Under the pieces are notes generated by a model. The model searched no databases. It was not told the DNA's origin and saw only the letters and a program-made list of their open reading frames with translations. Shown piece after piece: positions 15,301-64,000 of a stretch of DNA of 64,000 bases. Position 1 is the stretch's first letter. Each line of letters opens with the position of its first letter. The stretch is from Geosiphon pyriformis uo1. Lineage: Eukaryota > Fungi > Glomeromycota. The DNA is taken from positions 760,955 to 824,954 of the forward strand of contig JAAOMT010000328.1 in NCBI GenBank assembly GCA_016748015.1. The letters are read 5' to 3'. The translations under genes and the position numbers were made by a program.

Positions 15301-15590
15301 ATGGATTTTTTTTAACAGGAAAAAGCCTGGATTAGTTTTATTTTTGCATCACATTTCGATGTCGATCAGACCGAACATGTATAAACTTATGGGGAAATTA
15401 GAAATTACTAATATACAATGGGAGTGAGCAGACTTGTCTCAAAGAGTCCAAGATCTAGAATAATCTTCTGCAAATCAATAGATCAATCATTAAAAAATGT
15501 AGGTCGCAGAAAATTCTTGAATAAAATATACTTTCCTTTCATTTCATATCGCTCTTTTTCATCCCTTTCCTGGTCCGAAGCTCCCTATAA

Positions 15591-19993: not shown

Positions 19994-20487
19994 AATTTTG
20001 CGATCCCATTTACATGTCAAGAACAATTGATGCCTCTTAACTTAAAAATAACCGTAGTGTTCGTGAAAGGATTAACACATTGTACTGGGTTTTTTTTTTG
20101 ATTTTCGTACCACACTGTTAAAAAGATGATCTCTTGAATAGTTGCCCATTCTTGTCCATCAACGGATAAGTGCGCTTATCCGTTACATCCGCTGATAATC
20201 TTTAGCATCTCAAGTATGCTTGCCCTACCGTGGTAGTCTGTAATACATTATCATTGTCTTCGTCTCCAATTAATCACCGCTACTATTCTAATGATAATAT
20301 CAAATGGAAAAACCAGGAGCTCGAAGGATTTTTCTTCAAAAGGCTCTTGCGCTTAGTTCGTTGATAAAATACTTCTGTCCTTTGTCAATTTAAGCTTCTC
20401 TATTATAGAGAAAATCTGTAAAGAGCACGCGGTATTTGCTCTGGGTGTCATTCCGATCTGTGATTGCCTCAACAAATAATAGATAAC

Positions 20488-24333: not shown

Positions 24334-24569
24334 GGAGAGAGCAGCATACAAATATTGTTGCTTCCAACAACTAGATCTCAACCTGTACATTCTATTAATT
24401 TGTATACTATTTATATATTATTATAACTCATAAAAAGACACATATTTAGAGACTACACATAGGGTGCTTTTTGATCGTCTTTATATTTGATCGGACATTT
24501 GAGTCAAAATCTTTTTATTAAATATTCTGATCACTAATCTACCAAAGGTTATTCTTACATTAACGTCTG

Positions 24570-29551: not shown

Positions 29552-29752
29552 ATGCTTATATGCATCAAAAATTACAACATAGCTATTAATCGGTTGAAAC
29601 CAATGTTTGGAACTTGAAAAATATCAAATTCAATTTCTATCTATAAAAGACCTAATACTTATATACTGCCATTTTTTGGAAACGCTCCATATCTTTCCAT
29701 TTTGAAACCTAATAGTAAATTTGCCAATTTGGTCTGTATTATCCTCAGTGGC

Positions 29753-41093: not shown

Positions 41094-43884
41094 CAGAATA
41101 TACGATGCAGAAGAGTGTCTCTTGTTAAAAGTTATAAAAACAAATGTCGCTACATGAAAGGATAATAGGCGAGCCTGATAAAATTTTTGTGATCTGTTGT
41201 GGAAAAATTAACAAAAAAAGTTTATTTTAAGCACGATTTTCAAAAATCAAAATTTCCAATCATGTGATTATAACAATTAACCTAAAAATACGTAAAAGTA
41301 GGAACTAGAATCTTTGGCCAAAATATTTTTTTAAAGTAAGGTATTTTGTTCAATTCTTTACTTTTTGTTTTGCTAATTATATATTGAAGAATTATTAGAT
41401 TATAATTATAAATAAAGCATAATATATGTTGAAAAACTTTTTGAATATTTTTTAAATATTATTAATATATAAAAAACCATAAAAAAAATTAATAACTATA
41501 ATTTTATTTGAAATATATTAATAATTTGAAAATAAAATAAAAATGTTTTAAATTTTTGTAATTTTATTAATAATATCAAAAAATCTCAAAAATAAAATAC
41601 TATTTATATTTATTAATTTAAATAAATTTTAATAATTAATACTTATTCTACTTTATTTTTTATTAATTGAATTAATTTTCTTTTTGCATTTTAATACTAA
41701 AAATTAGCATTTTTTAAATTTTTAATTAATCATAATTTAAAAACAAAAAATTGAATATAATTATGCAAATTTTTTTTAATAATTGTTAAATATATTTAAG
41801 AAATTAAAACAATAATATTTTTTAAAGAATTTTAAAAATTGTAATTATTAATATATTTTTTGTGTTATAATTAATTTAATATACAATAATTAAATTGTAT
41901 TTTTTTTACCATATTAATTTACAAAAATTTTTGTAAAAAGTTTTAAATTGATTTAATCTAAAAAAAATAATAAAACTTTTTTTTTGTATTTTTATGATTA
42001 CAACCAAAATAAAAAGTAAAAAGTTGCAATTTCTTTATTTTTGAAGTATTTGGTAATATTTTTATTAATAAAATATTTACAACTTTTAAAACTGTTTAAT
42101 AATATTTTATAAAAGCACTTTTTTTAATAAAGTAATAATAAATTGGTTTTTTACTAATTTTAAAACATTATTTTTGTTTTTGGTTAAAAGTTTTTTCTTT
42201 TTTAAAGTTTTTTAAAAAAAATCATTTAAAATAGTCTTTGTTTTCTTTAAAAGTTTTAAAGTTTTTAATAAAAAATTAATAACTAAATTTTTTTACTATT
42301 TTTTTTACAGTTATTTAAATTATTAAAAAAGCCAAATTGGCCAAAAAACAATTTTTTTAAATTTTTGTTATATTAAATAACAATTTTTTTGAAGTGCTAA
42401 AAAGTTTTTTTCTAATTTTTTAATATTAGTTTTAATGTTTTAAAGCCAGTTTTTTTTTAATAAAAAATAAAGCTTTTGTTTTTTTTGGCTTTTTTATTGG
42501 TTTTATATTATTTGTATTGATTATAATGCTTGGTTTTATTATAAGTATAAATAAAAATATTTTTTATTTATATTTATAATAAAATATATTAATTAATTTA
42601 AATTTAAATTAATTTTTAATTATATTACTTAATATATTAGTTTTAAAAACAAAATAATTTATATTTTTATATGTGTTTTTAATTTATTAATTTATTAATT
42701 AAATAGAAATTTAAATTATTTTTTTTGTTTTTTAGTAATATTATTTTTAATAGTACTTAAAAAACAATTATTAATTATTAAGAATTTTTTAAATAAATAA
42801 ATTTTATTTTAATGTTTTTTTTTAAAATTAATTTGATTTATGTTAAATTTGCTTTTTAGTTTATATATGATTTTATTACTGTAAAATCAGTTTTAAAAAA
42901 CAATATAAAACTGTTTTGTATAAAGTTTGTCTTTTAAGTTTCTTTAAATACTATTATTTAAATTAAACTTGTTAATTTTGTTTCTTTTTCTATTTTTAAA
43001 ATTGCTAAATTTTTGTTATTGTTTTACAAAATATATTTAAGAGTATTTTTGTTATTAATCTTAAAAATATTTTTAACATTTTTGGTAAAATGTTTTAAAT
43101 TTTATTAAATTTTATTAATATTTAATAATATTTTATTGTTTATTTTAAATAATACTAATAATTGTTTATTAATATGTAATATTTGCTTAAAATATTAATT
43201 TTTATAATTATAATATTTAGGTTTTTATAAGAACTAAAAATAACAATTCTATATTTTAATTATTTAAAATAAAAAATAAAAAAAATTTAATTACAAATTT
43301 AAAAAACTAATTTGTTAAAACTATATAACTAAAAAACTTATTATAAAAAACAATAATTTTTTTAATTAATAAATAAAAATCTTAATATTGTTTTTAATTA
43401 CCAAAATTAATTAACAAATATAAACAGTTATAATTATATTAAAAAATTTAAAATAAACAATAATATATTATTAAATATTAACAAATTTTAATATAACTTA
43501 AAAAAAAAATTGATTACAAAAAATTGCAATTAACATATAATAATATATAATAATACACAATAATACATAATAATAATATTATTATTAAATAATATAAAAT
43601 AACATAAATAATAAATTATAGTTAATAATAAAATTACAAATTAATAAGCTTTTAAAAATTATTTTATAAAACAAAAAATATGTTAATAAATAAATAATTT
43701 TAGCTTAAAAAAAATTTAAAATTAAAATCTATTTTTTTATATATTTATTAATATTAATTAATTTATATATAATTTTTTACAAAAATTTTGTTTTTAAAAA
43801 TTGGTTTTAATAATTTTTGTCAGTTTTAAAAAAGAGTATTAATTTTGCATATAGTTTAATTATTAAATATTATAATAAAATTTA

Positions 43885-44245
43885 ATTATGTTGTTATCAA
43901 AGATTTTTTTATTTTTTTCTTAATATTATTAATATTATTTTGCTGTTAATTTTATTGTTAATAAAAATTAATAAACTTTTAATAAGTTAATTTTCTTTTA
44001 AAGTATTAAAAAATACTTTAAACTGTATATATTGTTAAATTTATAATAAAATAGCCAATTTTATGTCAATTACTTGAATAGTTATTTTATAGTAAAAATT
44101 AATTTTTTTACAAGAGAATTTTATTTGTAAGTTTTTTAAAATTATATGTAATTACTTTGTTATAAAAGTCAATTTTTTTACAGAAAATTTTGACTGTAAA
44201 CTTCTCAAAAAAAAAAAAAAAAAAAACCAAAAAAAAAAAAAAAAA
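43885..44245 (+). mobile_element. Eroded LINE 3' UTR plus poly(A) tail (homologue of ~52990-53350)
   Basis: By-eye alignment, e.g. ttgttatcaaagattttt..tttgctgttaat vs ttgttactggaggttttt..tttgctgtgaat; tandem hairpins retained; A-run 44207-44245. Confidence 0.8.
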
Positions 44246-44247
44246 TG

Positions 44248-44878
44248 TATTAAGAAAGTTGTTTTGAATTCAGACCTAAAAATTATTAATAGTTACTAAA
44301 ATTAATAGCTAATTAATTTCAAATTATTAGTATAGAATAGTAAATTTTTTAAACAAGAATAATTAAGAATTTTTATGTTTTTTAAAACAAATTTTATTGT
44401 AATTAATTTATAAAAAAAATAATTCTAACTAAAATATTTAATAAAAAATATAAATTTTAATGAAATTCTATTTTTTCGAAAAAAAAGCTCTTCTTTTATA
44501 TAATTTGGTATAACATTATTCTATAATCTAATAATTTTTTTTTTCTAATTTCTTGATAAACTAAAAATATATTTTGTTAAACTACAAGTTATTTTTATAA
44601 ACTAAAAATTATTTTAGTAAACTGTTGAATATTTTAATAAATTTTTAAATATTTTAACAAATTTTTAATATTAAATAATTCAGTATATTACATAATCTAA
44701 TTATTGCAATTTGGTTTTATTTGTGTTTTGTATAAATTAAGTTATTAATTAAATAATATTTCAAATAATTTAAAAAGATAATAAGTAATAAATTAAAATA
44801 ATAATATATATTAATTAATAATAAAAATTAAAAAACTAATTTTATGTCAAATAATATCTTAAATTTCGGCTAGTAATA
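44248..44878 (-). mobile_element. Eroded solo LTR related to the Gypsy LTR at 53357-53973
   Basis: Colinear over the full length (tattaag..tagctaattaattt..ttcgaaaaaaaagctcttcttttata..aaatttcggctagtaata), including the 20-bp repeat array; no internal region follows. Confidence 0.85.
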
Positions 44879-45164
44879 ATGTATATTTAAATATAAAACT
44901 AATATAAATAAGTTTAAATTTATATATAATAACAATTTAATATTTTTTATTATAATTTGCCAATTATTTTATTAAATATAACTAAGATTTTTAGTATAAG
45001 TTTTAAGATATATATATATTGTTTATTTTATTTAAATTTTAATAATAATATAACTATTAAAATAAACTTGTAATATTATTTTAATTAGTTTAAATAATTG
45101 GTTATATATAAAAAATATATAAGTTATATTTAGTTTAAAATATTTAATTATTATATTATATTAT

Positions 45165-45830
45165 TATTATGAGTTGAAGTAACAAGCTAACAGATAGCAA
45201 GAGAAAACAAAATTGTAGGGTGATAGAAATAATCAAAAAGAATTCAACTTTAAAGAGTGAATTGAATAAGTATAAATTCAATGTATGAGATTAGTCTCAT
45301 AAAATATCTCAGTTGCTATTCTTTTCAAAAAGATAATTGAAGAATCTGAAGATAGAAGGATAGTCTATACTGTCAACAAATGATCACACTTAGTATAATT
45401 CTATGCCTCATGTTGGCATTCTTAGAATTCAATATCAAGTATTAGATGTGCTTTTTAGTCATGTTTTATTCAATAATCTTCAAATGGTACACTTATACAT
45501 TTTAAGAAAAAGGATAAGAATTAACCAATAAGTAATCTTTTATCCTAAGATGTTTGGATACTTGAAGATAAGGAAAGAAAAATTAGCAATAAGAGAATAA
45601 TTGAAATAAAAGTTGTTATTTTATTTATTCTTGATTATTTTAAATATGCTTTTCTACAACTAAGAGATTCATCACTTATATAGCTGTCAAAAGTAGTCAA
45701 TAATCAGATTAATAGTCAAGTTATTGATCAAATTAATGATCACTATCTAAAAATAGAGTGGCTAATTTATATGATATCAATGGCTAAGACATATAATAAT
45801 TAATAAGAAGTATAAGTTTCAATCATAATA
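45165..45830. mobile_element. Probable solo LTR of a second family (~665 bp)
   Basis: Sharp island of higher GC; inverted termini TATTATGA..TCATAATA (eroded TGTTATGA..TCATAACA); TTAT on both flanks; no CpG seen; interrupts an older AT repeat. Confidence 0.6.
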
Positions 45831-46388
45831 TTATATTATATAATAATTAAATCTTACTTAAATTAATAATAAAAAATATATTAAAACCAAATAAAATATA
45901 TTTTTAAAAAATTAAAAAATTTTATTTAAAATTAAATATAATTTGTATATATTATTCTTAAAATTTTAATAATTGAAACCAATTATTTTTAATTATAATA
46001 ATTAAAAAAATTTAGTAATTTGATTATTATAATAAAATAATTTAATATTATAATAATTTCTTTTAAAAAAAAAAATTTTATAATTAATTTTATAAAAAAT
46101 TATTAACTTACCAAAAAAACAATATTAAATTTTATTAATTTTAATTAAATAATATAAGTTAAATTAAATAAAATTAAATAATAATTAATATTATATATTA
46201 TTATTAATATTTATTTTTAAAAAACTTTAATATCTTTTTTTTATTGATTTTATAAAGTATAATTCAATTATCAATGACTTCTCTCTTACTCCCAAAAATC
46301 CCAATAAGTTATTTTTCTGAAAAAAAAGTTTTTGTTTTTTTCTTATTAGTATTATATTAATATTTCTTTAACTAATAACCCCTTTGTC

Positions 46389-48256
46389 ATGGATTCAAAG
46401 GCTGCTTCTAGTGGCAGCATGTCTAGTAAGAAGACTTTTAAGAGCGTGTTTCATGGTCCTGCCAATGGTTTCTTTTCACAAAAAAAGAAGACTTCTCTTG
46501 GTAATGTTAAATACTCTGGTGATGAAAAGGATATTTCTTTGAAGTCTGGTTCTAGTGCTAGTGTATATTCCGATGTAGAAAGCCTTTCTGGTGATGATGA
46601 GGATGTTAGTATGTCTGGTGGTTTTAATGATTCTCTTTTGGATTCAGCTGTTAACACTCCCAAGGCTAAACGTGTGAATACTAGTGTGAATTTTGGTTCT
46701 CTTATTGGTTCTTCTGACTTTGAGATAGATGAAAAAGTGAAGCCCTTTCTGCCCCCCCTTATGAAAAAAATTCCTTTGGATAAGATCTGGATCGATCCCA
46801 AAATTATCAAAACTCCTATAGAGATGGCAGTTAAGAAATCTTTTGCCTTGGATATCAATCTTTCAGCTATTGAAAGCAAATCAGTGATGGCGAAAACTTA
46901 TTTAATCAGGAAGGTTTTTTCAAAGATCAATGGTTTTGGGGAGACCATTACCCTCTCAAAATTTGAAGGGATCATCTGATCGACATTTACATTTGAGGAG
47001 AGCATGAAGAAAGCTGTGTCATTGGCCGAAGAAGAGAGGATTGTCATAAACAATGATGTGAGAAAACAAGGGTTTCGTTCAGATCAGGCTGTGGTAATCA
47101 AAGAAATTTCCATGGATACACCAAAAGAAATAATCGTCATTGCAGTTTCTGAGTTTGGGCAAATTAAGTTGATCAAAATCCAGTTGGTTGGTATGTGGCA
47201 GAAGGCTGTGGTGGAATTCGCCAAATCAGGACAGGCAGAGCAATTGGCTTCAAAATGGTCCTTTTTAATTGAAAAAGACTCTGTACGTGTGGCAAAGGCC
47301 ATGAGAGATTGCAATATCTGGGTCTCTAGAGATCATTTTAGGACGCTTCTGTTTACACTGCTGGTGGGAACAACAACGCATGACCTTAGTAATCTTCTGG
47401 ATAAAACTGGTGGCAGAACTTGCATTATTAATCGTTTATTGAACACTGGCAATAGAGTTTGCTGTGCTGTAGTTGGCTTCAAATTCGAGAATGATTTGAA
47501 TTCCGCTTTTCTCACTGAGCCTGTTTTTGGTGGTGTTCGTCTTTCTTGGGCTAGGCTGGATTTGGTTCGATGTGAAAAATATGGACGTCTTGGACATTCG
47601 GCTTTAGAGTGTGATGCATCAGATATGTCGTCTTCTGATCTCTTGAATAATTTTAATAAAAGGCATGCTCCTAGTGTAGATCATCTCTAGTTGGCCAAGT
47701 TATATGTAAAGAAAAATGTTCCTATATCCCACCCTGCTGCCTTTGGTGGCAAATTATGGGCCCAGATAGTCTCTTTTGCTTCCTTTTCTGGTGGCTCTCC
47801 TTCTGGTTTTGGTCTTGGTACTGGTTCCTCTCACCATACAACTCCAGATTTGGGTGGTGGTCCTCCTTTTTTTACACTTGCCGACTCTTCTTTGAATGCT
47901 TGCTTGGCATCTTTGAAATGTTCTCTCGAGTTGTTGACTAACCAAGTGTCTGATATTTTAAGGAAATTGAGTTTTGTTGAATTGGTGCCCCTCTTTTGGT
48001 TGGATCTGTGTCTTTGGCCCCTAGTTTGGATTCTGATATGGCTCTGGATGGTGAATTGGCATCATTTGATCACCATTTTCCAAGTATTGATATGGGTGGT
48101 GGCTTCAATTCAAGTAGTTCGAAGGTTTTAACTACCAAGATAGGTGGTTTGAAGTCTAAAATGTTGGCTCTGGAGGCTTCAGTCAGTTCTGTTTTGGCAA
48201 GATTGGATTTTTTGTGTGCTGGTTTGGGTTCCTCTTTACTGCTTTCACCCCAATGA
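46389..48256 (+). pseudogene. LINE ORF1 (RRM-like region plus CCHC knuckle), interrupted
   Basis: FGQIKLIKIQLVGMWQKAVVEF; knuckle CEKYGRLGHSALEC (second C changed to Y); stops at 46977 and 47688; frameshift near 47990. Confidence 0.85.
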
Positions 48257-51200
48257 GCAGTTTGGTCTGGAAATTTGCTACATGTAATATTCAGGACATG
48301 AACATTCCTGTGAAGCAGGATGATATAGTTTGTTGGCATGTAAACTCGGGAAACATGGTTTTTTTTATTACTAAAACAAAATTAAGATCCTCTTCTGGGC
48401 CATGGATAAAGGATAAATTTAATGGAGTGCAAATCTTTTCTTCAGGATTGGATAAAGGTTTTATGGGTGCTGAAGTTGCAATTATTATAAACATTTCTTT
48501 GGCTTGTCATGTATCTAAGATGGAGGAGATTCCTGGTCGGGTTGTTTCTGTTTGGCTCTTGTTTAAGAGCAAACTCTCGGTTACTGTTTTGGGGTTGTAT
48601 GCTGGTGCCTCTTCTGGAGCTAGGTTTGGTCAGGCTTTTGAAGTTAACTTTCTTATTGCAAAGGCTGTCAACTCCAGCAATTTTGTTATCTTGGGTGGGG
48701 ACTTTAATGAGAATGGATCTAGTAAAAGTGCTAGTTTCAAGTTTTTTTTGAGTTTGGGTTTGGTCAATTCATTTGTTGGTCATTATTTGGCTAATTCTCA
48801 TATGTGGAGCAATTCGAGAGGGGTTGGAAAAACGATTGATTACATTTTTGTTGGTGGTAATTTGTCTTCTGCTGTTGCTAGTCATCAAGTTGTCTCTGTT
48901 TCAGATTTCTTTGACACTGATCACAGGGCAGTTGTGGTTTTGGTCGGTTTGGATGGGCTTTTGAATGTACAGTTGAATAGTTTGCACAAGCAGACGAATA
49001 AAGATTGTTGGAAGTTTAAAATCAAGAATACTGACTGTGCTGGATGGACTAAGTTTAAGGATCTCTCTTCAGCAAAACTCTTGTCTTTGGGTGAGGTGTT
49101 CTCTGGTGCTGAAATGCATGGTGATGTGGATGCTATGTGGGCAGTTTTGGTGGGGGCTGTGGTAGATTCTGCTGATGTGACATTTTTGAGACATTGGTTT
49201 AATGAATTCAAGTGTTCAAGAAACAAACATTCTTTTAGGTTTTTTGGTCTAGAATTGTTGGTGGCCAAGATTGTCAAGAAATTTTGCTCAGGTGACTTAC
49301 TGGGTACTAATCGTCTTGTAAATAAATGGTCAACTCTGAATGATGCAAAGGCTTGTGCTTTCAAGGACTTGGTTGGCTCAGGTGTTAAATCTGATGTTGT
49401 TGTTAGGCATTTGTCATTGGTTTGCAGAGATTACAGGAGGTTGAAGATGTTTGAGTCAAGATTGGCTGAGGAAGCTTTGATTAGGAAGGCAATTGAGAAG
49501 CACATAGATAATTTCTGTTTGGATAAAGGTAGTATGATTAGGAGTGTGTTGGAAAAGCCTTTTCGCAAGGTGGTGTTGAATTACTTGATAGTTGATAATG
49601 ATCTAGTTTTGTTGCCTGAAGAGGTGAAGTCGAGCGTGGATAAGATAATGGAGAGATGGACAAAGAAATGCTCTGTGCAGTCAGAGCTTCCTGATCTTTG
49701 GGCTTGTCAGTACACACCTTTGAACCATGTTTGGGATGATGCCTTTTTGGGTGTTATGAGTGCAATCAGTATGAGCGAGTTACTTTCTGTTGTTGGTGGT
49801 CTGCCTGATGGCAAAGCTGCTGGTTTGTCTGGTGTTTCTAATGAGTTGTAAAAACATGGTGGTAAAATGGTTTTGGGGTGCCTGTTGGTGCTGTTTAATA
49901 AGTGTTTGTCTGTTGGAGTGGTGCCTGTTTTGTGGAAGAAAACTTGGGTGTCAATGATTCCTAAGCCTTACGATTGGGATGGAGTTCTTACAAACACTCA
50001 GCCCATTGCTTTGATTGAGAGTGCCAGGAAGATTCTTTTCAAGGTTCTGTCTGATTGTATTTCAATGGCTTGTAGCAAGTTCAACATTCTTCAAGGTGAC
50101 AATTTTTCGGTGCTGAAGGGTACATCCACACAATCTCTAGTGTTTGCTGTCGGTTCAGTGATTAAGGATACTATTGAGAAGAATAGGGAGTTATGGTTGG
50201 TCTTGCAAGATATGCAGAAAGCTTATGATTCAGTTGGATGGCATTATTTAAGAGCTAGTTTGCAGCATGTCAAGATGTGTGAGAGGTTCATAAGGTTTTT
50301 TGGTGGTATTTATGAGGATAGAGTTAATAGGGTAATGACTGACTTTGGTTTGTCTGGTGGTTATAAGGTGCATGATGGGCTGGATTAGGGTGAGGTCTTT
50401 TTGCTGCTTCTATAGAGAATTTTTTATGATCCACTTTTGTGTAAGGTTAAGAGACACAAACAATTGTGTGAGTACCAAATTAATACTAAGTTTGTTGCAA
50501 AGTCTGGCAGAATTGAGAGCAGTGATGGTTTGACATTATATTTTTTGGCTGGTGTATTTGTTGATGATACAATCTGGGTTGGAAATTGTTAGGCTTCTAC
50601 TCAATATGCTCTGAACATTGCCAGTGAATTTTTTGTGATCAATGATATTTCTATCAACAGTGAGAAGACGATAGCTATTCCCATTAATCAGGGTGTTAAA
50701 GTTGCTTCACTGAGCATTTGTGGTCAGCCAATTTCTATTGCCAAAAAAGAGGAAGCACATCGGTATCTAGGTATTTTTCTGTCAACTGAGGGGCTCTCCA
50801 AGCCAAGTGTTGCCAAGGCTCATGTGGATGTGCATTTCTTTATCAATGTTGTGCTTAGGAAAGCTATTACTGACAAACAGTTCTCCTATCTGGTGTCGGC
50901 TATTTTATAGCCTATTGTTAGCTATTATATTCAGTTCAGTTTTGTCCCTTCTAATGTTTGTCACAAGTGGGATGTCTTGGTTAGAAAGGGTCTTAGGTTT
51001 AAGGCTTGTCTCCCCCATGATTTTCTTGATGCTGCTTTGCATCATCCCTCATTGTATGGCCTGAAGCCTTTTAAGCAAGTGCAGTCAGAGGGGAAGATTG
51101 CTGCTCTGATAATGTTCTCTAATCCCTTTGGTATTCTTGGGCGTTTGTTTAGACATAGGTTTTTGGATCTGCAGGTTCTTGGTTGGGCTCCTTTGGATTC

Positions 51201-52938
51201 TTTGCAGTTTCCGGTCAGGTTGTGTGTTAGTCCAGTAAACAATTTTTTGGCTGGGATGGTGAAGATTTTTTTGGGCAATAAGCTTTCTTTGGTGAACAAC
51301 CTCCCCACTGCATTTTGTAGTCCTGGTCATTTTTTGTTGTTCTTTATTCTTGGAAAGTCTCTGTATTTTGACTTGGTCAAATCTCTTAGACGCTTTGGTG
51401 TCACTTTTGGTGATCAGCTTTTTGATAAAAAAGATGTTTTGTTGGATTGGAAAACTTTTTGTTGTTGGAAGAGATTGGATCTGCGTGGCCCTGTGCCTCA
51501 TTGGTTCTTGGTTTCTTCAGAGTTTTTGAAAAGTCAGGGTTGTTCATTTTCTGGTTTTATTGACTCTGCGGAAAAGATTGGTTTGGACATTTTAGAGTCT
51601 GGAGAATTTTTTGTGGTAATAGATAGATTGCATGACATTTGGTTAGGCTTTTTTGAAGTTTTTACAGATGAGTCTTTGAGGAATACAGGCTCTGCTGAGG
51701 TCACCTGTGGTGCTGCTGCATACTTTTCAGTCTTGGATAAAAGCATTGGTATTGCTGTTAATGGCCTTTTGTTATCTACTATGGCCGAATTGCAGACTGT
51801 TACTTTGGCTTTGGAATGTGTTCCTTCTTCAAGTACTGTGGTGTTACATCTTGACAGCCAGGCTGCTATTGACGCATGTATGTCTGAGATGTCTTTGGTC
51901 ACCCCTGATTTCCGTAATCAATGCTGGCTGAAGAGGCATTATATTTTCAATTTGGTCAGAGATAAGGATCTTAGTGTGAGTTGGGTTAAGGTAAAAGGCC
52001 ACTTTGGAATTCCTGGTAATGTGGAAGCTGACTTGGCTGCTGAGGCTGTCTCTGGATCTCCCTTTTCCCTTTGTGCCAATGTGCATGAACATTTTTTGGT
52101 TGCTGAGAATGTCGCTATTTCTGGTAATGCCCATCATTTTGTTAGGAATATTTTTCGGTCTGTTTGTTCTGCTCATTGGGAAGCTGGGCCTGGTTGTGAT
52201 GTGGTTCCAGATGTGATAATTGGTTGCATAGACTGGGTTGTCATGGCAAAGGTGTGGCATCCTGATTCTCATATGCTCACTGAATTTACTAGCTGGGTGT
52301 CCTCAACACTTCGCACTTATATTATGAAGGCTGTGCACAGAAGATTACTGGTGGTGGTGAGAAAAAGGTTGTATGATAAGTGCTACCCTAGTGTATTATG
52401 TTTGTTTTGTGGTGGAGTGGAGTTCTCTAACCATGCTTTTACTTGTGTTTATGAGTCTGGCATTCATGGTGAAATTTTGGCTGAGGCTTCTGCCCATTGG
52501 TCAGCTTTGGCTGACGGTTCCCTTGCTTCTGCTGTGTTGTGAGTTTTGTCTCAATGTTCTATTGATGTTGGGTTGTACACTCTGGTTTGCAAAGGGTTTG
52601 TGCTGAGGGAGTGGTATGAGGAAGCTTGCAGTATTTTTGAGAATAGAAAGGTGGCAGCTACTCAGATTATTGATTATGTCAGGTTCGTGGTTGAGTTACA
52701 TCGTGCTAAAGTGTGATTGGCTAGGGCCAGCCACCGGGTGGTGATGGAGAAAGCTGGTCTGGTTTGTGACAGTGGTATTGTTTCTGGGCTCTCTCATGGT
52801 GTGTCTTCAGTTTTGTCTGATGATATTGTAAAATTGCTTGGTGTGGCCAATTCTTTTGCTGTTAGCTTTGGTCATCGGAAGCCTTATTGTTTTTTTTCTG
52901 GTCTGGGTGGCAGTGTGTAGGTTATTATTGGTGTATAG
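48253..52938 (+). pseudogene. LINE ORF2: AP endonuclease, reverse transcriptase, RNase H, CCHC finger; multiple premature stops
   Basis: GDFN/IDY/TDH (APE); KAYDSV, FVDD, YLG (RT); FTDESL, AEL, DSQ, KVKGH.G..GN..AD (RNase H); CLFC..E..NH..TC. Confidence 0.93.
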
Positions 52939-53356
52939 TGTTGTCTTGTCTGGCCTGAGTGGCTAGCCACATGTAGAAAGTGTGTGAGTTGCGTTGTTAC
53001 TGGAGGTTTTTGGTCTCTTTTCTATAATGTTGTTGATACTTATTTGCTGTGAATTCACGTTTTCTGGATGTGGTTGAACCTCTAGTAACTGAATTTATCT
53101 TCAAATTATCTCCTATAATTTGAACTGCTGGGCTTATAAGTGGAATGGCCAATTCTTTGCCAGTTACTTTATGTAGTTACATTGTAGTAAACGTCAACTC
53201 TTTCCCAGGAATTGCTTGTCTGGAAGCTTACTAAAATGTATAGTTACTTTGCTGTGAAAGTCAACTCTTCTACAGAAATCTTGTCTGTAGGCTACCCTAA
53301 TGATTATAATAAGAAAAGAAAAGAAAAATAAAAGAAATGTAAAAGAAATAGAATTT

Positions 53357-53973
53357 TGTCAAGGGAAACGTTTTCTATCCAGGCCTGGAGTCACTAACAG
53401 TTTACTGAAATTGGTAGCTAATCAATTTTGAAATGTTAGTTGGGTTTTGGGGATTTTCCAAGTACAATAATTAAAGAATTTGGTTTTTCAAATTATTTGA
53501 TATTTATTTCTTTTTGTGTGTATAGGAACAGTTTTAAGAGATAAATCTAAAGTAAGATACATTTTCTCGAAGAGAAAAGCTCTTCTTTTATACAACTTGT
53601 CGTAACACTATTCTATGAACTTGAACTTTGCTATTTTCTACAATTTTGCTGAACTAAAGATACATTTCGGCAAACTACAAATTATTTCTGCGAACTATTA
53701 GATATTTCGGTGAACTATCAATTATTTCGGTGAATTTCTATAAATTTCGGCGAACTTTTGAATGTTACATAGTTCAGGGTATTGCATGATTGATCATCGC
53801 AATTAGGTTACATTTGTGTTGTGTACAATTTGGGTTATTAATTAAATGATAATTTCGGATATTCTTTGCTAATGTAATAAGTGATAATTTGAAACAATAA
53901 TATATGCTAATTAATGATAGGAATTATGAGATAGTTTTATGCTAAATGATATCTCTAATTTCGTCTGGTAACA
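53357..53973 (-). repeat. 3' LTR (617 bp)
   Basis: TGTCAAG...GGTAACA on the + strand; ~96% identical to 62232-62761 over the shared part. Confidence 0.93.
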
Positions 53974-54661
53974 TAACCTCCTTCTCAAGACTGAGCTTCA
54001 TCGAAGTCCAAGTACTGTCTGTTATTTCCAGATAATAATCCAAAATTATTGAAGAAATTTGGTCTGAAAATTGTTGAAATTTCAGTTTTGTGAGCTTTCC
54101 AATGTATTGAATCTTCAAAGGTTGAAAAATTGGGTTTTGTAGTACGTTTTCACAAGTGTGGAATAGATCATAAAGTCTAAGAGCAGCTCTAAGCCTATAG
54201 TGACTGTTTGTTAATCCAGCTGTTGTCTTGAATTCGTTGTGGAGTTGTTTCTGAATAGCTTCTTTTGTGAGGTTTGCTGTTGTAAGTTCCAGTTTCTGTT
54301 CGTAGAGTGTTTTTCCAATGTGAAAATATCTATAGATTGGAAGATATTCAGTGTTTTCCTCATTGAGACACAGTTGAAGTTTTTGTTGACTTGTAGTATT
54401 TAGTGGGATACTAATCGGAGTGAGCATTAGGTTTTCTTTTAAAGCAAGCTTTAAAAGTTCTGGCAGGTGAATTCCAGTATAACTTCTTGTGTTCTTTTTA
54501 TATGGGTGATATTTTCGTGAATTTGGGGCTAAATTTATAACTACTTCTGTTTGGGTATAATTTATGTGGTTTCCAGTAACAGTAATGGATAATTCGGGTA
54601 TTGTTTTTAAAGCTAACATTAGTTTTTGGGATAATTGTTGAATGTTTTGAGGAATAGTCAT
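53942..54661 (-). CDS. Gypsy accessory ORF3 (~239 aa, no obvious TM segment, unknown function)
   Basis: Uninterrupted ORF after integrase; runs through the PPT and ends 32 nt inside the 3' LTR. Confidence 0.7.
   Translation of the reverse strand: MTIPQNIQQLSQKLMLALKTIPELSITVTGNHINYTQTEVVINLAPNSRKYHPYKKNTRSYTGIHLPELLKLALKENLMLTPISIPLNTTSQQKLQLCLNEENTEYLPIYRYFHIGKTLYEQKLELTTANLTKEAIQKQLHNEFKTTAGLTNSHYRLRAALRLYDLFHTCENVLQNPIFQPLKIQYIGKLTKLKFQQFSDQISSIILDYYLEITDSTWTSMKLSLEKEVMLPDEIRDII
53974..53986 (-). promoter_or_regulatory. Polypurine tract
   Basis: GAGAAGGAGGTTA on the minus strand immediately before the 3' LTR TGT. Confidence 0.85.
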
Positions 54662-54775
54662 TATAAGCACTTGAAAAAATAAAAATTTATTTTTGGTTTA
54701 TGGGTTTTTATGTTATTTTTGTTTTGTTTTTGTGAGATTGTTCTAAATTATAAGAGAATAACTAGTAAAATTAAA

Positions 54776-57700
54776 TTAAGTGTTCAGGTTGGAAGGTTGT
54801 TCAATGACAACTATTGGTTCTAAGTTTCGGGGAATATCTTCAGGACTGATCAAAGAGGAATGTGTACCAATTTGTGGAATTAATGGTTCAGGATTGTTTC
54901 TGGAATGATAGTGTTTCAAACAATCTCCATGTGCAACTTTTGCTAGGATTTTGTCATCAAGTCTTAGCTTGTATGATCCATTGCCTAGAACTTTATGAAT
55001 AAAGAATGATCTATCCCATTTATTTTCAAATTTTCCACTCCATTGTTTTTCAGCTTTAGTTCTGTGTAAGAGAACTTTGTTTCCAATTTTGAATTTATTG
55101 GTGACTAAAGGCAATTTGTCATCATGCCGTTTTTTTTGTTGAGCTTGAGAGTGTTCAATATGGGTGGTTGCTATTTGTCGTTTTCCTTCCAATATGCTAA
55201 GCAGAGTGTAGACTCTTCGCTGAAGCATTTCTTGAAAATTGTTTTCATCGATCGGTTGTGCTGGGTATGTTTCCACTGTGAAACTAATTGGTAATGTTGC
55301 CATCCTTCCATAAGTTAAATCAAATGGTGTGTGTTTCGTGGTATCTTGTTTTAATGTCCTATATGCTAGTAATACTGATGAAATAAAGAGATCCTATTCT
55401 TGCCCAAAATCGGTTGAGACTTTGGCTAATGAATCACACAATGTTCTGTTAAAACGTTCCACAAGTTCATTTGTTTGTGGATGGTAGGGCGAAGACAGAG
55501 GTCTTTTGACACTGAATCGTTCACAAATTTTTTGTATCAGGTTGTTTACAAAGTGTGTTCCCTGATCAGATAAAAGTTCAATTGGACATCCATGTCTATA
55601 AATGATGTCTTCGTAGATGAAATTTGCTACTGATTTTGCATCTGCTTGTTGAATGGCTCTGGCTTCAGGCCATTTAGTAAAATAGTCTACAGCTACTGCA
55701 ATATAATGGTTTCCTTGAGTGGTGATAGATAGTGGTCTGACTAAATCGATACCAACTTTGTCAAAAGGCTGTCCAACTTTGATTGGATTTAAAGGTTCCA
55801 TAGAGCGAATTCCTCCTCTTCTTTGACAACTATCACAAGATTCGACATATTTATGAATGTCTTTTCTCATTCGAGGCCAAAAGTAGTATTCTAGTGTTCT
55901 TTGGGGGGTGCTATCTTTTCCGAAGTGTGCTGATGAAGGATCTGAGTGCATATTGTATAAAATGGTCTCTTTTTCCTGTTTTTGTATTAATCTGAGTGGT
56001 TTGGTTGGGTTTTTGAAATTTCGATGATAGATAATGTTGTTGTGTAGAAAATATTGTTTGGCTTGTTGTTGTAACTGATGTTTTTCGTCTGGGGACCAAT
56101 CTGTTGGGATTGTTAATGTCTCCAAATATTGTTTGAAATTGTTGTAGTTTTCAGGATTCATTGTTTGTTGTTTTGATGCTGTTAATTCAAATGGGTGTTG
56201 GTTTTGTTTTCTAATCTTGCCTCATTCTTGAGAGACAATCAACGTTGGTGTGGAGTTTTCCTGGTTTGTGGTATACAATGTATTGATAATTAGCTAAAAA
56301 TCCTGTTCATTGGGTTTGTTTTGCGTTCAGCTGGGTGTTTTTGTTTTGAAGCCATTTAAGTCCAATATTATCAGTGATAATATCAAATTCTTTGGGTCTA
56401 AGGTAAAGGTTGAAGTGATGTAGGGCCCAAATTACTGCTGTGGTTTCTAATTCTGTTGCGGAGTAGTTCTTTTTGGCTGGCTTTAATGTTCTACTAGCAT
56501 AAGCAATTACTCGCTCATTTCTATTGTCATCTAACTGTAATAAGATGGCACCAAAGGCAGTATAAGAGGTGTCAGTTGCTAACCAGAATTGGTTGCTGAA
56601 ATCTGGGTAGGCAAAAATTGGAGCTGTTGTGAGTTTTTCTTTAAGTATCTCGAAGGCATTTTGGTGTTCTTCTGTCCATTTGTATTCGACATTTTTAGTA
56701 GTAAGCTGGTTGAGGGGTTTTGCAATTTCTAAAAATCTTTTGATAAATTTTCGGTAATAGGATGATAATCTAATAAATTCTCTTAATTCTGTGGTATTTT
56801 GTGAAGTCTTGAAGTTCTTGACAGTACTGATTTTTCTGGGGTCTGGTTTAATTCCATCTTTGCTAACAATGTGACCAAGAAAAGTTAAACTTGTTTTTCC
56901 AAAGTAGCATTTTTCAATGTTCAGTTTCAATCCTGCTTTCCATAATCATTGAAAAACTTCTTGCAGGTGGATTAAATGTAGCTTGAAAGATGATGAATAA
57001 ACATCAGTGTCATTGAGATAAACTACTACTGATTTCCAAAGGAGGCCTTTGTAAACAACATCCATGAGTCTTTGGAATGTTGCTGGTGCATTGCATAATC
57101 CAAAAGGCATTACATTGAATTCGTAATTTCCTCCTTGAGTGGTGAATGCTGTTTTGGGGCGGTCTTTGAGATCCATAGCAACTTGCCAGTATCCACTCTC
57201 CAAATCTAATGTTGAAAAGTATTTGGACTTTCCAAGGGCATCTAACATGTCATTAATTCGGGGAAGAGAGTAGGCATCCCCAATGGTGACACTGTTGAGT
57301 TGTTGGTAATCAACACAAAATTGTATCTTTCCATTTTTCTTTTTAACTAGGACCACAGGTGAGGCCCATGGGCTCATTGATGGTTGAATAAGCCCATTGT
57401 TAAGCATCCGTTGTACTTCTTCTCGGATAAATTGGTGACTTTCTGGGGCAACTCGGTAGGCTTGTTGTTACCTTGGTTTGGCATCTCCTGTATAGATTTG
57501 GTGTTGAACCAAATCAGTTTTTCCTAAGTCATTGTTGTTTTTGGTGAAGATGTCAGCAAATTCTGCAATTAGCTCTTTGAGCTGGGTCTGTTGTTGTGGT
57601 TCAAGTTGTCCTATGTTGATTCGAGATAGTTTTTCCATGACAACATGGTAGTTTTCAGAGCTGGGGTTTGGATTGGTTTTTGGTATTGAATGTCCAATAA

Positions 57701-60700
57701 TTTCAGAGAAATCGGGAACTATTTGGGGTAATTCTTGTTGAAATATATTACTGTGAATAACTCCAATTTTTAAATTATTTAATAAAATTATGAGGTAATT
57801 ATTGGGGTTGTAAAAAGTAACTCGGACTTTCTTTGTTCCTTCTGGAATATAAATGTTTGGGATTGAAATATTATGTTCCAAGCAGACTTGTTCATTGGAC
57901 TCAAAAATTTATTGTGTGGTTGTTGACTTTGGGCAGGTGTAGATTTCCGGATGTTCTCCAAAGGGTGAGATAGTAATCAGTTGTGGAAGTCTGAGAATCT
58001 GGTGGGATTCGTTCTGTGTGTTAAGAGCTATATTAACTGGAACTGTGAATCGTCCAGTTGAACCAAAACCTTGGGTTTCTCTATTGTTTTTTCCTAATTG
58101 TTTTCTTTGATTGACTAGTTGCAAACCCAAAATGTTGATTAAGAGTAGGTAAATAGCTTGGGCAATTTTTTCAGCATGTTCAATCTTGAATGGTTTGTCA
58201 GTTTCATTTTGAAGCATCACTGTTATGTCTCCAGTATATTCAGCATCNNNNNNNNNNNNNNNNNNNNGTCTGAGAATCTGGTGGGATTCGTTCTGTGTGT
58301 TAAGAGCTATATTAACTGGAACTGTGAATCGTCCAGTTGAACCAAAACCTTGGGTTTCTCTATTGTTTTTTCCTAATTGTTTTCTTTGATTGACTAGTTG
58401 CAAACCCAAAATGTTGATTAAGAGTAGGTAAATAGCTTGGGCAATTTTTTCAGCATGTTCAATCTTGAATGGTTTGTCAGTTTCATTTTGAAGCATCACT
58501 GTTATGTCTCCAGTATATTCAGCATCAATTATTCCTCCTCTGACATTGATTCCTTTGCTTGCCAGAGAGGACCGGGAGGCGATTTGAACCATTGCTCCTG
58601 ATGGGATTTTGAGTGCAATTTTGAGGTTGATTTTTGTAAGAGATTTGGGTTTGAGAACAAGAGTATCCTTGCCTGGATATTTTAGGTCATATCCAGCATC
58701 AATTTCGTGTGCTTTTTCAGGTTTTATTCCTTGTCTGTTGTTGTTAAGGTATTTAAGTTGTAAAACAGACTGATTTTTGATAAGGTAGATGGGTGTTGTT
58801 TCAATTTCTTCCGTTTCTTCAGGTTCTCTGAATTCAATTTGATTCTCATCATTTTCACTGGGCAAGAGGATACTAAGAGCATAATATTCAGGACACCATT
58901 GTTTATCGCAAGGCATAATGCATTCTTCACATAGCCTAATGTTCATTTGCTCTAATTGTTGAATTTGAGCTTCTTGGATTGGGTAGGTGTGACTTGCAAT
59001 TTGGTAGTAGACTTCTACTTCATCTTCGTAATCGAATCCAGCTAATTTTATAGTGTATTCAATGTATTCTGCTTCTTTTATTTGATGAACATCTTCTTTG
59101 GTAATTCCATTAATTAATGTCATTGCTAAGTCAAAAATCATCTCGGCATCATGAGAGTAGTGATAAAGTTTGTTGAGAGCACTATTGTATACTGCATTAA
59201 AGGGTGTTCCTCTTTTTACTTTTTCTGAAATTGATAAAGCATATTGGCAGGTCTGATCGCAGATGCCTCCTCTCATTGCTACATCAATTCAATTGCATTC
59301 TTTTGGTAGCATCTCTTCACAAGTCAAACAAGGAGTGTTGTCCCATTTTTCGCTCCTTTTTATTAGATGGCCCCATTGCTCTCTGTGGCAAGCCTTGCAG
59401 TAATAACAAGTATGATTCTCATATTCTTCTTCAGGTGAAATGCAAGCTCCCATTGATGATAGTTTCTTGTGACAGTCCTTACATTTAAGGGGAATATAGG
59501 GGCGTTGTTTCTTTGGTTCGGGTTTTGAGTAAAGTATATTCTATCCAGAGGTTTCGGGTTTAGTGTGTGGGGTGAAATGTTCTTGTTCTGTTTCATTGGC
59601 CCAGTTGGATACTGATCCAAGAGCCATGAATGTTTCGATTATTGGTTTTTTTTCTTCCGGTTCAAATTCAAAAGCTGGGGCTTTTTCAGAGCATTTGTTG
59701 AATGTACCACAAATGGCAGATACCTGGGCGTGTTGTCCTTGGTAGGAGATTGTTAACTCTTGTGTTTCCCAATTCAGATTAGCATTGGCTTCTTGAAGCC
59801 AATCATTTCCGATGAGAGCTTGATACTGGGGTGCATTTATTACAAGAACTTTGACTGAAATGGTGATTCCATCAAGAGTGAATAGAAAATTGTCAATTTC
59901 TCCTACTGGGGTCTTTTTCATGCCATCAGCAGTGATGATTACTGTTTGAGCTGGTCAGTCGACATTTCTTTTCAACTGTTGCATTAACTAGTAGGTAATA
60001 ATGCTTCTGGCGGATCCACTGTCTAGGATTAAGCGAATTGGCTTTCCTTCTACTTCAGCTTCTGTGTACATTGCAGTGATGGTTTTTTGCTCATTAGCCA
60101 CTGTATTGCTAAGCAAGAATGGTGATTCATTTGTTTCAAATTCAAAAGGAAAGATATCAGAGAGATTGGCGTTTTCAGCAATTTGGGCTAGTGGAATAGT
60201 AGTGTGGTTATGAGAAGGGTTTCGTTGTTGTTGTGCTGTAGCTTTACCTTCTGAAAGTGCAGTATAGTAAAAATTCTGTTCTTCCGGCATTGTTAAATAA
60301 CTGGGTTGAGTGTGGTAATGGTTGGGTCTTGTTTGAGTGGTATTTCGGGGAACCAATTGGTTGTTCGAACTGATTCTACTGTTGTTTACTTGGTATCGGT
60401 TTTGTGGTGTAATTTAATTTTGTGTAATCAGTCTTCAAGCAGGTACTTGATAATGTTGGGTGGGTGGTTGTTGGTATTGCTGTTGGATTGGTTGTGGGGC
60501 AGGCTGATAATAGTTATTTTGGTATTGGGGTCTTGGTGGATAGTAAGCTGGTGGTGATGGTTGATAATAAGATTGCTGTGGTGAAGAATAACGTTGATTA
60601 CTCCTATTTTGTTGGTCTCGTTGCAGCTTTCTGCAATCTCTTTTCCAGTGGCCAGAGATTCCACAGTAATGGCAATTCTGGGGCTGGTTATTGGAAAGTA

Positions 60701-61928
60701 GTACAAAGTTATTTTGATTTCGTCTTTGGGGTGGTTGATATCTTTGGGGTTGTTGTTATTGTTGGTTGGTAAAATAGTTTTCGACTTTCTTTGTGAGTTG
60801 GTCAATTTTTTCCTCAGCTGCTGAGCTGGTTTCTCCAATTGCCAAATTTACAAGTTTTGTTTAATTGGTTTTTTCCATGGCCATTTCATATCTTTTCGCA
60901 TGCTGTATGGCAGAGTTTAAATCTTCTGGTGCGTGTAGGCAAACCTTTTTAATTAGTTTATCTTTTAGACCAGCAATAAATTGATCCAAGATTTGAGCAT
61001 CAGAATAATAATTGTTTGTCTCGAGTTGGCGAATCCGTCTGAGAAGTTTGTTGAATTTCTCAATATAAGTCATAATAGATTTGGAGGGTTCTTGTTTGAT
61101 ATTTCGAAAACGATTGCGAAGAGTGATGGAGGTATTATTGTCGGTGAACTGTTCAAGGAAAGCTGCTTTGAAAGCATTCCAATCATTGAATGGGGTGGCA
61201 AAGTTTTCAAACCATTCTCCTGCTGTTCCTTTGAGAAAGTAGGGTATTGTTCTTAACATTCTGGCAGCATTCCATCCATTTGCATCTCCAGCTTTAGTAA
61301 CTTGGTTGAGCCATTCTTGGGGACTGGTCTCAATATCTTCTCCATTGAATTCAGGGATTTTTGCAATGTATGTTGTCATTTTGTCTTCTTCATTTTCACT
61401 GTCTATTGATTCTTCTTCAGTTATTTCAGAGTTGTTTTCTTTGTTTGCTGCTGTTTCAGAGTGTTCACTTTGATTTTCAGCTAGAAAATCAAGGAGATTG
61501 GAACTAGTTTGAAGGGGTTCTTGTTGTCTGGTAGAACTTCTGAGTGATGTAAAATCTTTTGGTCTTGCAAATCGATTCAAGGGTGAATTAGGTGTTTGTG
61601 CTTGTGCAAGTGAAGCTAGAAAAGGTGTGATAGTAAGTGGAAGTTTTAAACTGGTTCTCTGTTCAGGTTTTTGTAAATGTTTGGCAGTTGTTTTCGGTAG
61701 TATTGGAGTATTTGGGGTGGTTCTTGAATATTGCTTTAATTTGTTTTTGCCTTTGTTGCTTGTTTCTGTTTCCAATTCAAAATCAATAGTGTATTGAGAC
61801 TGCACTGGATATGTTTCTTTACAGTACTTGATAATGTTAAAATTAAGTTTGTGAAAGTAAGTGGCAAGTGTTTCACTATTAAGGTCTTCAGTTCCCAACT
61901 GTGAATAGTGTGCTAAATTATTGTAAAG
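54776..61928 (-). pseudogene. Gypsy gag-pol polyprotein, interrupted; 5' end lies in the N gap
   Basis: Gag (IPEFNGE..EWL..LKGTAGEWF), knuckle CHYCGISGHWKRDC, protease LDSG, dUTPase, RT (SPWASPVV, VMPFGL, YLND), RNase H (TDTS, YSATELE), integrase (H..H..CDSC, VDYFTKW, SDQG, YHPQTN). Gag to RNase H share one frame; frameshift near 56.2 kb. Confidence 0.93.
58330..58740 (-). other. Trimeric dUTPase domain within Pol
   Basis: All five motifs: AGYDL, ASRSS, GGIIDAEYTG, EKIAQ, R.TQGFGSTG. Confidence 0.93.
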
Positions 61929-62231
61929 NNNNNNNNNNNNNNNNNNNNNNNNNNNNNNNNNNNNNNNNNNNNNNNNNNNNNNNNNNNNNNNNNNNNNNNN
62001 NNNNNNNNNNNNNNNNNNNNNNNNNNNNNNNNNNNNNNNNNNNNNNNNNNNNNNNNNNNNNNNNNNNNNNNNNNNNNNNNNNNNNNNNNNNNNNNNNNNN
62101 NNNNNNNNNNNNNNNNNNNNNNNNNNNNNNNNNNNNNNNNNNNNNNNNNNNNNNNNNNNNNNNNNNNNNNNNNNNNNNNNNNNNNNNNNNNNNNNNNNNN
62201 NNNNNNNNNNNNNNNNNNNNNNNNNNNNNNN

Positions 62232-62761
62232 GTTTTGGGGATTTTCCAAGTACAATAATTAAAGAATTTGGTTTTTCAAATTATTTGATATTTATTTCTT
62301 TTTGTGTGTATAGGAACGGTTTTAAGAGATAAATCTAAAGTAAGATACATTTTCTCGAAGAGAGAAGCTCTTCTTTTATACAACTTGTCATAACACTATT
62401 CTATGAACTTAAACTTTGCTATTTTCTACAATTTTGCTGAACTAAAGATATATTTCAGTGAACTACAAGTTATTTCTGTGAACTATTAGATATTTCGGTG
62501 AACTATCAATTATTTCGGTGAATTTCTATAAATTTCGGCAAACTTTTGAATGTTACATAGTTCGGGGTATTGCATGATTGATCATCACAATTAGGTTATA
62601 TTTGTGTTGTGTACAATTTGGGTTATTAATTAAATGATAATTTCAGACATTCTTTGCTAATGTAATAAGTGATAATTTGAAACAATAATATATGCTAATT
62701 AATGATAGGAATTATGAGATAGTTTCATGCTAAATAATATCTCTAATTTCATTTGGAAACA
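62232..62761 (-). repeat. 5' LTR (inner ~87 bp and the PBS hidden in the N gap)
   Basis: Direct repeat of 53444-53973; ends GGAAACA. Confidence 0.93.
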
Positions 62762-62829
62762 GCATTTAGTTTGAGTCTCTTAGTTTGGCTCTATGTACTA
62801 GATAACGATTGGACTATACTTGTTAAATG

Positions 62830-63132
62830 TGTTAATAATAATTATCAATTATAAATTAAAATATAAAAACTTAAAATAATTATTATTTATGTTTTTACTA
62901 TATATAACTAGTTATTTAATTTAGTAAAAACCAAATTAAATTGAATTTATAGAAAAAAACCTATTTTAAACAAATATTTTTTACATAAAAACAACTAATA
63001 AACTACTGTTTTTATTAAATTATTTAATTATATAACAGTTTTATCTATATAAAACTTGATATTAAATAGTTAAAGTTTTTATAAAATTATTATTTAAACA
63101 TATATTTTATATTAATAATAATATTTATAATA

Positions 63133-63167
<35 letters not shown>

Positions 63168-64000
63168 ATTAAACTTTAAATTAAGCTTTGTAATTTTTAA
63201 ATTTAAATTTGCCAATACTATTTAATTTAGTTTAAAAACCAAAATACAAATCTCTTATTTTTATAATTAAAACAAAAAAAACATTAAATAATTTAATTAC
63301 CAATTAAATCAAAACACCAAAAAACTTAACAATAAATTTAATTAATAAAACCAAATTAATTATATTAAAATTTAAAAAAACCAAACAAAAACCAATTATA
63401 AAATTAACAACAATAACAACAAAAAAAGCAGCTAGTAAAACAACAATATAAATTATAAAAGCAAAAACCTTAATATAAAACTTAATACTAATAAAAAAAG
63501 AATTAAAAATTTTAAATCTAATAGTAAACTTAAAAAAAACTTAAAAAAAAGATAATAATATTAAATAATCTATAACCAAATAATTTAAACTTTAATACTT
63601 AAAACAATATTAATATTTAAGAGTTTTTTATTAAATACAATACTTTTTTAAAATATTAATTTTGATAATAATAGTATTTAAATTTTTTTTAAGACCAAAA
63701 ATAATATATAAAAATTATAATTATTATATAAAATTAAGAAATAGAAAATAAAATTATTATATAATTGGTTAATTTAAATTTTAATAATATTAAAATAATT
63801 AAAATTGTTTAAAAAATAGTTTTTTGATAAGTTTGTTTTTGTAATTTCAAAATAATTTAGCTTAAATTAAATTTGTGTTTAATTATATATAAAAAATACA
63901 TGAATTATATTTAATTTAAAACTTATTTAATAATTATATTATATTAAATAGTAGTTAAACTTTATATATTAATATAATAATAATAATAATAATAATAATA
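62830..64000. repeat. Extremely AT-rich eroded repeat relic with TAA/TAT microsatellites
   Basis: No ORFs; 63850-63970 aligns by eye to 45060-45160 + 45831-45860. Confidence 0.65.

Follow-up and report, generated by a model that had tools for sequence, protein, structure and literature searches.

Context-wide decay of cytosines, fastest at CpG and after 5' T, in transposons of the glomeromycotinan fungus Geosiphon pyriformis

Introduction

In repeat-induced point mutation (RIP), many mutations are introduced per passage, and these are clustered and often strand-biased. In a survey of 1,239 genomes published in 2025, RIP-like signatures are placed essentially in Ascomycota only (PMC12543289), and signatures of RIP are reported to be absent from chytrids (PMC6572847). 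Dim2-dependent C>T mutation of repeats during mitotic growth is described for Zymoseptoria tritici (Moller et al., 2021, PMC8016269); related literature includes 10.1101/2025.09.02.673565, PMC7862722, and PMC7928374. Here we compare with these systems a 64,000-nucleotide stretch of DNA (the window; assembly GCA_016748015.1, contig JAAOMT010000328.1, positions 760,955 to 824,954 of the forward strand) from Geosiphon pyriformis, which carries a Ty3/Gypsy retrotransposon with long terminal repeats (LTRs), a long interspersed nuclear element (LINE), and AT-rich relics next to host genes. A preliminary description of this DNA, made without knowledge of its origin, had proposed that a repeat-directed mutator or heavy non-CpG methylation operates in a genome outside Dikarya; the host, a member of Glomeromycotina, is indeed non-Dikarya. 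We find that cytosine loss in its transposons reaches every 3' context, with the highest rates at CpG and where T precedes the cytosine.

Results

The mutation spectrum was obtained by aligning same-family proteins to the window copy. Codons were retained if the window copy has the commonest residue of the family, amino-acid changes explicable by one unique base change were counted, and sequence context was read from the window DNA. All 120 listed matches, of 471, to the open reading frame (ORF) of the dUTPase region of the Ty3 element came from G. pyriformis, with identities of up to 89%. These 120 copies covered 289 of 339 codons, and 2487 of the 2767 changed residues needed a single base change. 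Per site-copy, C>T was found at 1806/17792 (0.102) and T>C at 212/30133 (0.007); transversions ranged from 0.001 to 0.004. Sorted by the 3' base, C>T rates were 0.27 at CpG (9 sites), 0.10 at CpA, 0.10 at CpC, and 0.08 at CpT, and 1597 of the 1806 changes lay outside CpG. After family-wide context normalisation the excess thus extends beyond CpG, in line with what had been suspected from the window alone.

The 5' base had a much clearer effect than the 3' base. Among non-CpG cytosines of the Ty3 family, the C>T rate was 0.149 for TC, 0.090 for CC, 0.066 for AC, and 0.047 for GC (p = 1e-17), and the effect was alike on both strands (TC, 0.136 coding versus 0.154 template). TCG was the top trinucleotide at 0.30 (7 sites), followed by TCA, TCC, and TCT at 0.13-0.17; TCH (H = A, C, or T) and VCH (V = A, C, or G; 0.05-0.09) both lay far over the T>C rate. 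The same was observed in a non-LTR family. All 120 listed matches, of 213, to the LINE ORF were likewise from G. pyriformis (identity up to 87%), and two segments of it, represented by 28 and 40 of the 120 listed proteins in high-scoring segment pairs of at least 65% identity, gave C>T rates of 0.078 and 0.083, with TC the highest 5' context in both (p = 9e-8 and 0.001). The effect of a 3' A, C, or T was not significant in the Ty3 family (p = 0.08) or in either LINE segment (p = 0.41 and 0.10). When the window copies were compared with the family majority in the three data sets, C>T or G>A accounted for 23/27, 39/47, and 18/18 differing codons. CpG was depleted in the elements (observed/expected [o/e] 0.22-0.33).

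Differences between the two LTRs of the window element are consistent with this spectrum. The 530 bp that align without gaps (53444-53973 versus 62232-62761) differ at 21 positions, as initially counted, 20 of them C/T or G/A and one T/A. The context count first given (11 CpG, 6 CpA, 3 CpT, and 0 CpC) is recovered if the CA/TG pair at 53671-72 is taken as one decayed CpG; read per copy, the changes fall at 9 CpG, 8 CpA, 3 CpT, and 0 CpC. Transitions affected 20 of 152 C/G sites versus 1 change at 377 A/T sites (p = 9e-11), and the difference persisted for non-CpG sites alone (9/122 versus 1/377, p = 2e-5). CpA did not exceed CpT and CpC together in the LTR pair (6/54 versus 3/68, p = 0.18). 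The apparent CpA excess among the 20 LTR changes was gone family-wide, where CpC and CpA change equally often; CpA specificity was rejected.

The coding regions carry corresponding damage. Premature stops, described earlier as decayed Q, W, and R codons, align to Q, W, or R in 13 of the 13 cases covered by same-family proteins; at two further stops distant relatives have W, and the stop at 56948 received no assignment. The motif damage read in the first description was borne out for DAEY, where the family majority is G; for YLND and TDES what can be said is that the affected codons are one G>A change away from the canonical residue. The knuckle C>Y change, a by-eye reading, sits in LINE ORF1 near 47570.

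DNA-level comparisons gave the same picture. An old relic LTR of the window's Ty3 family (43880-44876, minus strand), when aligned with the young LTR, showed 163 C>T/G>A changes and 16 reverse transitions. Seventy-four of 89 cytosines after T were changed, versus 89 of 154 others (p = 4e-5), with no effect of the 3' base (p = 0.46), and relic TpA was at or below expectation (o/e 0.87-0.97). In a DNA sequencing run, which may be the window's own source, 24,910 contigs lay over 53100-55600, where 62 of 809 C/G are CpG cytosines; C>T or G>A accounted for 307 of the 477 variant places in this interval. Two spliced runs yielded only 14 and 2 transposon contigs, with more transversions and A>G/T>C changes, as distant subfamilies would show.

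We analyzed how hits are distributed over Ty3 copies. Linkage between derived sites was nil (mean r2 0.017 versus 0.015-0.016 after permutation). Because derived states are unlinked between sites, the hits are independent and not inherited, and inflation of the counts by shared ancestry is ruled out. Consecutive hits showed neither strand coordination (0.551 versus 0.548 expected) nor clustering, and there was no per-copy strand bias (chi2 73, 110 degrees of freedom). The per-copy load was 3-18%, mildly overdispersed and correlated with other changes (rho 0.35). Tandem CC>TT changes were not significantly in excess (57 observed versus 47.9 expected, p = 0.11). Accumulation looks like a steady clock rather than bursts.

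Judged by composition, cytosine decay is restricted to repeats. The interval 15500-35400 is single-copy, being covered in the DNA run by one contig (depth 82.5) without variants, and its transcripts appear spliced in two runs. From 60 splice joints 15 were listed, 14 were used, and 12 parsed as GT-AG; these 12 RNA-confirmed introns (15756-19807, plus strand) have 35% GC, CpG o/e of 1.00, and TpC o/e of 1.02. Fourfold sites in host exons (n = 1010) have 34% GC. In contrast, AT-rich blocks of the window are stripped of GC and CpG: 41400-45150 has 10% GC, CpG o/e of 0.21, and TpC o/e of 0.51; 62850-64000 has 10% GC, no CpG, and TpC o/e of 0.36; and 13900-14750, which lies between host genes, has 9% GC, no CpG, and TpC o/e of 0.25. 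With a further one at 45800-46300 there are four such blocks, all of 8-10% GC and nearly devoid of CpG. The equilibrium predicted from the family rates, 9-15% GC, is close to the relic values and well below that of the introns. The GC profile is bimodal, with 33 of 316 200-bp bins below 15% GC. Near genes GC drops from about 35% to below 10% over 200-300 bp, and the lowest 300-bp bin within 15500-41000 has 24%. The signature is therefore absent from single-copy introns and fourfold sites in terms of composition, not rate. The earlier statement that older relics lose nearly all G/C while genes keep CpG stands as regards composition, less so as regards the transposon origin of most blocks: in 72 relic-element comparisons the only match confirmed was that of a fragment at 45074-45169 (minus strand) to the left end of the LTR (about 52939-53035), and a few others marginally beat 10 shuffles.

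A related Ty3 family was found in a soil metagenome. A scan recovered 75 related loci, 49 of which form one family with about 89% identity and 25-29% GC; its host is plausibly another arbuscular mycorrhizal (AM) fungus. At the DNA level this family showed C>T at 0.107-0.111, T>C at 0.018-0.019, and transversions of at most 0.006. The coding strand was mildly favoured (0.12-0.13 versus 0.09). Contexts ranked CpG > CpC > CpA > CpT, and a TpC preference was absent. The amino-acid method, used with two references, reproduced this TpC-free pattern, which rules out that the TpC bias is a method artefact. We conclude that C>T in all contexts also occurs outside Geosiphon, and that the TpC bias is not universal.

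The Ty3/Gypsy element lies on the minus strand. Its 3' LTR (52942-53973, about 1030 bp) has a left boundary at 52939 or 52942; this extent is supported by two relics that align with its left part, and the high contig depth of the DNA run extends leftward to 53100. The internal region (53974-61928) contains Pfam matches to gag, dUTPase, reverse transcriptase, RNase H, and integrase, a polypurine tract, and in-frame stops. Of the 5' LTR, 530 bp are visible (62232-62761), the remainder being inside an N gap at 61929-62231. The two aligned LTR stretches are probably a true twin of one insertion; the family-wide, relic, and intron conclusions are independent of this status. GTGT at 52938-52941 (plus strand) and GCAT at 62762-62765 are a weak candidate for a 4-bp target-site duplication, derivable from one CpG-centred 4-mer via transitions; it is weak because there are eight equally degenerate matches in 744 bp. 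The 303-N gap is too short for what it must contain, namely the remaining LTR (about 500 bp together with the primer site and the beginning of gag). A CpG-bearing 20-bp tandem array of 4.7 copies is located inside the 3' LTR (53643-53756) and holds 6 of the 21 LTR differences. A 259-bp exact duplicate (57989-58247 and 58268-58526) around a 20-N gap is an unmerged contig-end overlap, not a real tandem repeat.

The LINE (46380-52938, plus strand) encodes ORF1 with a knuckle, endonuclease, reverse transcriptase, and RNase H. The natural stop of its ORF2 lies at most 4 bases from the start of the Ty3 LTR (52936-52942), and to the left there is no visible LINE tail. A 650-bp TG...CA segment (45170-45821; 25% GC, CpG-free) that interrupts a relic could be a solo LTR from a different family; it has no match to elements of the window. 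Host genes at 1400-41200 encode a 2OG-Fe dioxygenase, COX15, beta-tubulin, a many-intron TPR protein, a Slo-type potassium channel, a class I tRNA synthetase fragment, TFIIIC subunit 1, and a multi-Myb protein. A tubulin comparison gave no more than a hint on the host, a 93% match to Diversispora eburnea. Among the host genes lies a pair of 120-bp inverted repeats (3478-3591/8304-8426, 84% identical), possibly a small non-autonomous element. Recent duplications of DNA other than transposons are absent from the window.

Discussion

Repeat-directed cytosine mutagenesis in Geosiphon is real, bears a new signature, and is RIP-like in outcome. In the strict sense the term RIP-like, used in the preliminary description, does not hold: the CpA preference is gone family-wide, 5' T is preferred, and strand-biased or clustered bursts are missing. 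We do not class the process as RIP because 3' preference and bursts, two tested features of RIP, both fail. No report of such decay in Glomeromycotina was found by title and abstract opening in the literature searched, a search outside which the Geosiphon genome paper (PMID 33592192) fell. Geosiphon has 0 matches in the 19 text supplements of the survey of 1,239 genomes (PMC12543289), and the terms 'RIP' and 'C-to-T' do not occur in a survey of AM-fungal transposons (PMC11952901).

Of the two options first raised, a repeat-directed mutator and heavy non-CpG methylation, the latter fits better than premeiotic RIP. We lean, by a little more than an even judgement, towards heterochromatin-targeted methylation of CpG and abundant non-CpG cytosines by enzymes of the DNMT1/DIM-2 class, followed by deamination that is mostly vegetative and gradual. 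Such enzymes would methylate repeat chromatin at CpG plus many non-CpG cytosines, the methylated cytosines would deaminate to give C>T across many, probably mitotic, divisions, and decay would end in a relic of 8-10% GC. 5-Methylcytosine (5mC) is the likely intermediate, laid down by what is likely a DIM-2-like writer with a 5'-T flanking preference. In Rhizophagus irregularis, 32.5-49.5% of cytosines are reported to be methylated as measured by liquid chromatography-mass spectrometry (PMC8298701), which would therefore exceed the capacity of CpG in that fungus. The same source lists DNMT1, DNMT5, DIM-2, and RID as retained in the AM fungal clade, and DIM-2 is reported to methylate all contexts and to intercalate beside the -1 base (PMC11315935).

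Several points weigh against this preference for methylation and deamination. A 2026 review (PMC13297926) treats RID as ascomycete and describes early-diverging fungi as having near-undetectable 5mC, which contradicts PMC8298701. A 5'-T preference is not established for DIM-2, its flanking preference being given as unresolved (PMC11315935), and the mitotic Dim2 mutator of Zymoseptoria is reported to act at CpA in >98% of cases, unlike that of Geosiphon (PMC8016269). Many weak rounds of RIP would likewise erase strand bias. Our family rates from amino acids cover nonsynonymous changes in predicted proteins, synonymous and nonsense changes being unseen; the single-copy control is compositional, drawn from 916 nt of intron sequence and giving no rate, and only 3 variant places were found across runs in 19.9 kb of single-copy DNA. 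The AT block at 45800-46300 differs from the other three in showing no loss of TpC (o/e 1.03), and a transposon origin was not demonstrable for most AT blocks in the comparisons made.

RID-dependent, homology-triggered RIP that acts weakly over many sexual or parasexual cycles, on a lineage-specific TpC and CpG target, would also produce both-strand C>T limited to repeats and a bimodal GC profile. RID is given as present in the AM clade (PMC8298701), and target sites are reported to vary among fungi: CpA, CpT, and CpG (PMC4352252) or TpCpG (PMC3318451). Yet CpA preference is absent in both Ty3 and LINE, as are per-copy strand bias, clustering, and a bimodal load. The Ty3 family is very large, with 471 protein matches, and its copies therefore went on spreading; LTR elements make up 41.2% of the genome (PMC11952901). 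Signatures of RIP are reported to be missing from Gigaspora margarita and from Mucoromycotina (10.1101/2021.03.30.436303). We consider this explanation unlikely. TpC is the motif of APOBEC- or DddA-like deaminases. A TpC-preferring deaminase of this kind, or deamination catalysed by a methyltransferase, acting on silenced repeats alongside CpG decay, would account for the fact that, outside CpG, nothing influences the rate more than a 5' T, in two unrelated elements as well as in the relic. It would also agree with a bias that is lineage-specific, like an enzyme preference, the soil family having equally strong C>T without it. However, the preference is merely 2-3 fold, non-TpC cytosines of the Ty3 family mutate at 7-13 times the T>C rate, and same-strand clusters are absent. 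Moreover, if Ty3 cDNA were edited, one strand alone would carry the changes, yet both strands show them to a similar degree, as does a LINE, and we regard a deaminase as improbable.

An AT-biased spectrum acting genome-wide, masked in genes (35% GC) by selection or GC-biased gene conversion, would fit the AT-richness reported for AM fungal genomes (25-29% GC, PMC9453076) and the similar all-context C>T dominance of the soil family. It appears very unlikely, since the introns are depleted of neither CpG nor TpC, while context-blind restoration of GC would leave both depleted, and since GC falls so steeply at gene borders, with no bin of the gene-bearing interval approaching relic values. Ultraviolet light could act on a soil-surface fungus that hosts a cyanobacterium, dimers at methylated dipyrimidines then deaminating in the order TC > CC > AC, GC. 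That order is seen in all three data sets (Ty3 and the two LINE segments) and is absent from the soil family. CC>TT is not significantly in excess, purine-preceded cytosines are heavily hit too, and introns show no TpC loss; we give this explanation hardly any credence.

A broader proposal, which we find doubtful and advance tentatively, is that Glomeromycotina possess, outside Dikarya, a dedicated repeat-recognising cytosine mutator, 5'-TpC-biased and 3'-blind, that erodes transposons to below 10% GC with a lineage-dependent preference, a signature that our literature searches did not turn up. Were such a mutator to require RID and a premeiotic stage, the decayed repeats would also document sexual reproduction in fungi in which it has not been observed. 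If the repeat-directed decay described above holds up, mutagenesis of this type would be older, or reinvented more often, than thought, and the DIM-2/RID homologues of AM fungi, together with their reportedly very high 5mC, would gain a role. LTR-based ages in Geosiphon would be too old, because nearly all divergence would be targeted C>T. CpA-based indices would miss the decay because its bias lies 5'.

Among described systems, Dim2 mutagenesis of Zymoseptoria is alike in being repeat-restricted and nearly pure C>T. Its link to non-CG methylation and its independence of sex are features that in Geosiphon we infer. In Zymoseptoria CpA takes nearly all changes and CpG is spared, whereas in Geosiphon CpG is highest, 3' A, C, and T are hit alike, and 5' T is favoured. 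With RID-dependent RIP of Neurospora crassa and other Pezizomycotina, Geosiphon shares both-strand C:G>T:A in repeats, nonsense decay of Q, W, and R codons, and AT-rich relics next to intact genes; it differs in lacking CpA preference, bursts, and strand bias, in relic TpA that is not raised, and in relics as low as 8-10% GC. The CpA, CpT, and CpG signatures reported in PMC4352252 are also unlike the pattern here. TpCpG hypermutation in Pucciniomycotina (Horns et al., 2012, PMC3318451) is similar in that 5' T raises the rate, TCG also ranking first among trinucleotides in Geosiphon; in Microbotryum, sequences matching TpCpG in part are reported as not elevated, whereas TCA, TCC, TCT, and all other cytosines are hit in Geosiphon. 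Decay by CpG methylation (mCG), as reported for R. irregularis (10.1101/2021.03.30.436303), likewise makes CpG the fastest and a depleted context, unlike the Geosiphon Ty3 family in that most changes of the latter are non-CpG. Finally, APOBEC-type editing of cDNA yields clustered G>A on one strand, whereas in Geosiphon TC is hit at similar rates on the two strands and the changes are dispersed.

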